This document shows positions 15,721 to 15,830 of a stretch of DNA of 22,377 bases, piece after piece. Each line of letters opens with the position of its first letter. Positions within the stretch are counted from its first letter, which is position 1. The translations under genes were made by a program, and so were the position numbers. Source of the stretch: a virus; UHGV virus genome UHGV-0172060; one strand, written 5' to 3'. The notes below the pieces were generated by a model. The model was not told where the DNA came from and did no database searches. It worked only from the letters and a program-made list of their open reading frames with translations.

Positions 15721-15830
15721 AACTCTCAACTGTCTGAGGGGAGGGGCGGGTCAAATCTCTGTGACCTGACGTCTTCCGGACTGCCCGCCCCATCGTTTTT
15801 TTATACCCGCGAAAAATGAAATTTAACCAG
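15721..15830. other. candidate cos site / packaging signal region
   Basis: G-rich GAGGGGAGGGGCGGGTC reminiscent of the lambda cohesive-end sequence GGGCGGCGACCT; 8-bp inverted repeat GGGGCGGG/CCCGCCCC; T-rich tract; sits between the HNH and small terminase genes. Confidence 0.4.

Follow-up and report, generated by a model that had tools for sequence, protein, structure and literature searches.

The window, which is the whole stretch of 22,377 nucleotides that was analysed, is, judged from its sequence, a lambdoid prophage with an HK97-type head module. Its upstream genes encode a cI-like repressor, an O-like replication protein, a Q antiterminator, a DNA methyltransferase, a holin and Rz, and a 158-aa ORF (14330-14806) aligns with the lysin R of SfV. 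The methyltransferase (350 aa, 12862-13914) is located between the Q antiterminator and the holin, and upstream of Q there is a gene for another HNH-family protein (331 aa, phrog_96; 10557-11552), larger than the one beside cos. A candidate cos site had been placed, in a preliminary description of this DNA, between an HNH endonuclease gene and a small terminase (TerS) gene, and the ORFs and Pfam matches bear out both neighbours (Table 1). TerS is followed by the large terminase (TerL), the portal, an S78 protease and an HK97-fold capsid gene, as identified from ORFs and Pfam. The order HNH-cos-TerS-TerL is identical in SfI, SfV, phiP27, HK97 and D3.

The HNH protein, a terminase-associated nuclease, is homologous to gp74 of HK97 (40% identity, 65 aa, E 6e-11) and to the HNH protein of D3, orf96 (51% identity, 67 aa, E 6e-19); SfI and E. 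coli RefSeq genomes label the gene 'HNH endonuclease'. TerL matches D3 TerL with 46% identity (E 6e-170) and HK97 gp2 with 26% (E 2e-29). No lambda-type terminase domain was found in the window with Pfam, and no tRNA-like element was found at the flagged region. In RefSeq E. coli genomes, the 60-aa ORF between TerL and the portal gene (18078-18260) bears the name of an e14 prophage gene, ymfR, and the portal protein of the window is only 25-35% identical to that of SfV. The presence of ymfR and the divergent portal indicate that the head module is e14-like, unlike that of SfV. This change marks a mosaic joint downstream of TerL, the HNH-cos-TerS-TerL segment being nearly identical to that of SfV.

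Table 1. Features of the cos region and its flanking genes. Coordinates are those of the window; signed offsets are counted from the predicted top-strand cut.
Feature	Position	Strand	Remarks
HNH endonuclease gene	15366..15716	+	116 aa; Pfam HNH PF01844, E 5e-16
Imperfect 7-1-7 palindrome TGATAATAACTCTCA	15714..15728	.	Overlaps HNH stop codon
Non-coding gap between HNH and small terminase genes	15717-15841		Houses cos
Upstream cos subsite, G-block GAGGGGAGGGGCGGG and TCAAATC	15736..15757	+	Conserved in 75 loci
Perfect 8-bp inverted repeat, GGGGCGGG / CCCGCCCC	15743-15750 / 15784-15791		33 nt between arms
Spacer	15758..15777		Length fixed at 20 nt, sequence variable; information content ~0, no indels needed
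Conserved GGAC	15778..15781	+	Directly 5' of the predicted bottom-strand nick
Cohesive end (cosN equivalent) TGCCCGCCCC	15782..15791	+	Probable 10-nt 3' overhang; matches SfI gap
T7 run	15796..15802	+	+5..+11; consensus 'aTTTTT' in 75 relatives
Downstream block TTTTTTATACCCGCGAAAAATGAAATTTAA	15797..15826	+	Putative TerS site (cosB equivalent)
Shine-Dalgarno AGGAG of TerS	15829-15833		Start ATG at 15842
Small terminase gene, P27 family	15842..16336	+	164 aa; Pfam Terminase_4, E 2e-21
Large terminase gene	16333..18066	+	577 aa; HK97/D3-type; Pfam TerL_ATPase and TerL_nuclease

The three features on which the candidate had been based, which are a G-rich 17-mer (15736-15752), an 8-bp inverted repeat and a T-run (15796-15802), are all present in the gap. 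The cohesive end is TGCCCGCCCC, which occurs once in the window, at 15782-15791. In SfI, the termini of virion DNA were sequenced directly with primers in the HNH gene and in terS, and the run-off reads lacked 10 nt of the prophage sequence, 5'-TGCCCGCCCC-3'; the authors' verdict was cos packaging, with headful packaging excluded (PMC3636060). The last bases of the SfI record are this same sequence and its first base is the next one after it. The GenBank record of phiP27 carries a 'cos-site' feature, CGCCCGCCCC, which corresponds column for column to 15782-15791. PhageTerm was used to correct the ends of the Edwardsiella phage EPP-1 (PMC11043334); its record has ...ACTGCCCGCCTC (...TGCCCGCCTC) as the right end and restarts with CCCCAATTTTTATGACCGCG, so that the junction is the same. 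With the SfI run-off gap at this sequence and both phiP27 and EPP-1 in agreement, the candidate cos was right in kind and place.

Both SfI reads leave a gap, not an overlap, which means that the 10 nt are absent from either 5' end, and this points to 3' overhangs. HK97 has 10-nt 3' overhangs (PMC9410871), and the same polarity is probable in the SfV/SfI/phiP27 lineage. The top strand would then be nicked at 15791/15792 and the bottom strand at 15781/15782. The final 10 nt of HK97 and of HK75 are in register with this cohesive end, and in the HK75 record they carry the cos site annotation. The records of SfV, SfIV and VIT_AJPSC break at 15774/15775, which is 7 nt to the left of the predicted bottom-strand nick, and this may be a linearisation convention or may reflect a different mapping. 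The cohesive 10-mers were looked for in the full-text literature, where the only papers that matched were unrelated.

The interval 15366-16336 is 97-99% identical to SfII, SfIV, SfV and SfI, which share near-identical DNA around the cut, the gene order and the cohesive sequence, and 15775-15841 is 100% identical to SfV. Across about 110 nt around the cut, a single base at +1 sets the window apart from SfI if the few bases that follow the HNH stop codon are left aside. A one-base difference between SfI and SfV was given by the SfI authors as 'T versus A' (PMC3636060); in the two records the difference is at +1 and is G versus A. SfIV DNA gives defined restriction fragments and has an identical cos (PMC3851460). 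With a probability of about 90%, 15714-15826 is the cos of an e14-like lambdoid prophage of the SfV/SfI/phiP27 type. This site is already known: over ten years ago the same sequence was mapped by experiment in phages that are nearly identical. The region 15600-15950 is present in 1141 of 5426 complete E. coli genomes, and the discovery value of a sequence found in about one fifth of them is small. Its practical use is in annotating such prophages with exact ends, with the cohesive end at 15782-15791 and the left end starting from 15792.

An alignment of TerS proteins led to 80 loci in species-representative genomes of Enterobacterales, Pseudomonas, Comamonas, Burkholderia, Herbaspirillum and others, with TerS identities of 48-99%. 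These loci were anchored on CGCGAAA and, after the addition of phiP27, PARCL1pr and Klebsiella phage loci, gave 75 distinct cos regions; a TerS search of viral contigs yielded only 99-100% identical loci and no extra diversity. The 75 P27-type regions, which come from Enterobacterales, Pseudomonas and Burkholderiales, align free of gaps and have three conserved blocks. Their order is fixed, with the G-block and tcaAAtc (15738-15757), the 20-nt spacer, GGAC|YGCC...C| at the cuts, the T-run and the ACCCGCGAAA block following one another. The columns around the nicks (15778-15791), ggACyGCc...C, are among the best conserved in the 75 loci. What stands above chance is that three elements, G-block, cut region and downstream block, are conserved at constant spacing in these relatives.

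The downstream block shows the strongest conservation of the whole region, with the consensus TTTTTAyaCCCGCGAAAwATgAAaTTt in 75 loci, and CCGCGAAA is near-invariant among them. In HK97, TerS binds 15 bp, CTAACCCGATTTTTT, at +15..+29, and a C:G pair at 21 and the adjacent A-tract are essential (PMC11331095). The window has TATACCCGCGAAAAA at +11..+25, within the near-invariant block, and this sequence resembles the HK97 TerS site. The block varies with the type of TerS, being absent from D3 and present in its own version in HK97. On this comparison, 15797-15826 is the probable binding site of the small terminase. No sequence similarity was found between the window TerS and HK97 TerS, the Foldseek match of TerS was not significant, and the similarity to D3 TerS is marginal (E 0.007).

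Upstream of the cut, the G-block and TCAAATC span -56..-35, and TCAAATC starts 41 nt before the top-strand cut. The 17-mer GAGGGGAGGGGCGGGTC at 15736-15752, with 12 G among its 17 bases, is the most G-rich in the window. The palindrome over the HNH stop codon matches the Fur box TGATAATnATTATCA in 12 of 14 positions. Of 74 loci, 18 have a palindrome TGA-N9-TCA with at least 5 of 7 pairs within the 45 nt directly upstream of the G-block, where flanking DNA would predict 0.37. It is present in the loci L099, L109, L141, L154 and L161, in some cases as a pair about 50 nt from each other, and several enterobacterial loci, L099 for example, have a perfect match to the Fur box. The form TGA(G/T)AAT-N-ATT(C/A)TCA also occurs in HK97 (about 659-673 in L006) and in D3 (about 654-668 in L179), and the core common to Pseudomonas, HK97 and D3, TGAGA-N5-T(C/A)TCA, fits the Fur box more poorly. 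The palindrome is a recurrent, not a universal, upstream element.

An IHF-like match in TCAAATC was checked by eye and fits the consensus poorly. The 'promoter' features near cos in HK-phage records are mere consensus matches on the other strand.

The upstream module is common to HK97, D3 and the P27-type family, in which TerL and HNH are homologous while TerS and the downstream DNA differ. That the module is shared despite these differences makes a reading by TerL or HNH, or a role in termination, more likely. It is a tentative proposal, for which the odds are clearly below even, that the upstream half, made up of the G-block with TCAAA at a constant -41 and, in many members, the palindrome TGAnAAT-N-ATTnTCA, is a distinct cos subsite read by TerL/HNH, or its palindrome by a host factor such as Fur. 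If so, this subsite would position the cut or end packaging and would be the cosQ analogue of 3'-cos phages. The fixed-distance upstream module with its palindrome resembling a Fur box is the sole part of the site that may be new, and it may already be contained in the original genome papers of HK97, D3, SfV and phiP27.

The preliminary description had proposed a comparison with the cos sites of HK97-like phages, which gave the same register in HK97 and HK75 and the upstream module in D3. Outside the Shigella phages, one close likeness is with phiP27, the Stx2e phage from which P27 TerS takes its name. It has CGCCCGCCCC in the same columns, and its G-block, TCAAATC, T-run and ACCCGCGAAA are equally spaced; its cohesive end differs from that of the window by one base (C for T, at the 5' end), and the two TerS proteins are about 50% identical. 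HK97 shares GAC(C/T)GCC at -13..-7, as GACCGCC, and has a G-run with TCAAATCT at exactly -41, in the register of the window. Its cos is likewise located between the HNH and TerS genes, with a TGAGAAT-type palindrome upstream and homologous TerL and HNH proteins. HK97 also has ACCCG and an A/T-tract downstream, at +18..+22; in the window this element is at +14..+18, 4 nt closer to the cut. The cohesive sequence of HK97 is a different one, CGCCGCCAAA, and its cos is about 320 nt away from HNH, compared with about 65 nt in the window; the resemblance of their TerS proteins is at the level of fold only.

The Pseudomonas phage D3 shares the upstream palindrome and has GGGGTGGGGCGGG; its TCAAAAC is 40 nt from the right end and is followed by GGAC and a C-rich terminus, with T5 at +5..+9 after the cut. 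It has no ACCCGCGAAA block downstream, and its overhang is said to be 9 nt in the D3 genome paper. The window thus has, like the cos sites of the HK97/P27 type, the gene context, the family cohesive end, flanking elements at fixed distances, and the terminase lineage together with HNH.

In the proposed mechanism, the P27-family TerS and the HK97/D3-type TerL, aided by the adjacent HNH protein, would cut concatemeric DNA at cos, and the cut would leave 10-nt 3' overhangs, TGCCCGCCCC on the top strand. HK97 TerS stalls the motor at cos, and the gp74 HNH protein stimulates the cut (PMC11331095, PMC9410871). Packaging would run rightwards into the terS, terL and head genes, so that the HNH side would go into the head last. 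The site would be modular. The downstream T-run and ACCCGCGAAAAATGAAATTT (15797-15826) would be the likely TerS recognition site, equivalent to cosB, and GGAC|YGCC...C| would be the nicking site. The G-block/TCAAA, four helical turns upstream, would be read by TerL/HNH or be needed for termination, like lambda cosQ, and would be the first cos element that the translocating motor meets. This layout offers a testable map of the bases of an HK97-class cos that are likely read by TerS and of those read by TerL/HNH, and such a map bears on current structural work on the termination of HK97 packaging.

In lambda, cos consists of cosQ upstream, which is met first at termination, the cut site, and the small-terminase region downstream, by the terminase genes. 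Lambda has 12-nt 5' overhangs and the Nu1/gpA terminase, with no HNH partner, and its cohesive sequence is G/C-rich. The logic of the window cos is similar to cosQ-cosN-cosB, and the cohesive sequence is G/C-rich in both. The site is of another type than that of lambda, since its TerS is of the Terminase_4/P27 family, its TerL is HK97/D3-like and an HNH gene is adjacent. The likeness to lambda that had been seen earlier does not extend to the ends, where the overhang is probably 3', 10 nt long and HK97-like, as opposed to 5' in lambda.

In this copy the portal gene lacks 2 bp (GT, 19099/19100) when compared with an E. coli prophage that is 99.8% identical and has a complete portal of 413 aa. 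The resulting frameshift, by which the window also differs from SfV, breaks the gene up into two ORFs, 18260-19243 and 19074-19499. Packaging without help may be beyond this prophage, or the portal may contain an assembly error. The cos could then be genuine by descent and a relic, used by a defective prophage only with a helper phage of the same terminase type, as the split portal gene suggests. This is possible and rather unlikely, for the cos region is identical to those of viable phages, HNH, TerS and TerL are intact, and the 2-bp difference could be an assembly error. Such a reading concerns whether the copy is active, leaves the identity of the site untouched and agrees with the assignment as cos.

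The inverted repeat and the T7 run could alternatively form a rho-independent terminator, or a hairpin that ends the lysis/HNH transcript, and not a packaging signal. The repeat is intergenic and lies past the HNH stop codon, and in the RNA fold its two arms are paired, with the T-run 4 nt past the stem. The loop, however, is 33 nt long, a terminator scan gave no match at the repeat, and the fold is no more stable than that of shuffled sequences (z -1.8 for RNA, -1.6 for DNA). The 8-bp repeat itself arises in 4.4% of shuffles of the 110-nt region, and about 30 further independent 8-bp inverted repeats with loops of up to 60 nt are found in the window. The preliminary description had counted the repeat among the cos features; it does exist, but it is not a conserved one, since only 8 of 75 relatives pair G-block and cohesive end over 8 bp, and the pairing does not covary. 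The mean longest complementary run in these relatives is 5.05 within a sequence and 4.93 across sequences, where one sequence supplies the G-block and another the end. RNAalifold gave no consensus structure, a scan of all column pairs revealed no nested covarying helix, and Rfam had no match for the region. Late transcription must, by analogy with lambda, pass through cos into the head genes, which also counts against a terminator. The attributes of an intrinsic terminator, a short hairpin with a small loop, a conserved stem and a U-run, do not come together here, and the terminator is very improbable. Because its arms do not covary, we take the repeat to be incidental, produced where a G-rich block and a C-rich end face each other, and to be neither a functional hairpin nor a terminator.

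The G-rich stretch had been described as an element similar to lambda cosN, and the 17-mer at 15736-15752 could on this basis be itself the cut site and the cohesive end. It is conserved, its G content is the highest in the window and its composition is like that of the lambda cohesive end, GGGCGGCGACCT. The mapped or annotated ends of SfI, phiP27, EPP-1, HK97, HK75 and D3 are nevertheless 40-41 nt downstream of the TCAAA start, and none of the records compared ends in the G-block. The chance that the cut is in the 17-mer is very slim, slimmer than that of a terminator, and the cohesive end is instead the C-rich right arm of the repeat, 15782-15791. Headful (pac) packaging with incidental motifs, for which no support was found, is the least probable of all. 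Three points speak against it: the homologues of TerL include the cos terminases of HK97 and D3, the SfI authors excluded headful packaging (PMC3636060), and SfIV, with an identical cos, gives defined restriction fragments (PMC3851460).

Two minor observations concern TerS and the cut region. The N-terminus of TerS (residues 1-30; 15842-15931) is a basic arm of low confidence in which G9, R10, K13 and K18 are invariant, and residues 138-144 (16253-16273) are an invariant D-P-S-S-R-x-R that opens the penultimate helix. From their sequence, and as a lead only, both recall the 'arginine clamp' of HK97, which is formed by Arg7-Ser8 and Glu126-Ser127-Arg128. On the bottom strand of 15778-15791, the family consensus GAGGCGGCGGTCC shares GGCGGCG with lambda GGGCGGCGACCT, in an orientation relative to the terminase genes that is opposite to that in lambda, and this match may be a coincidence.
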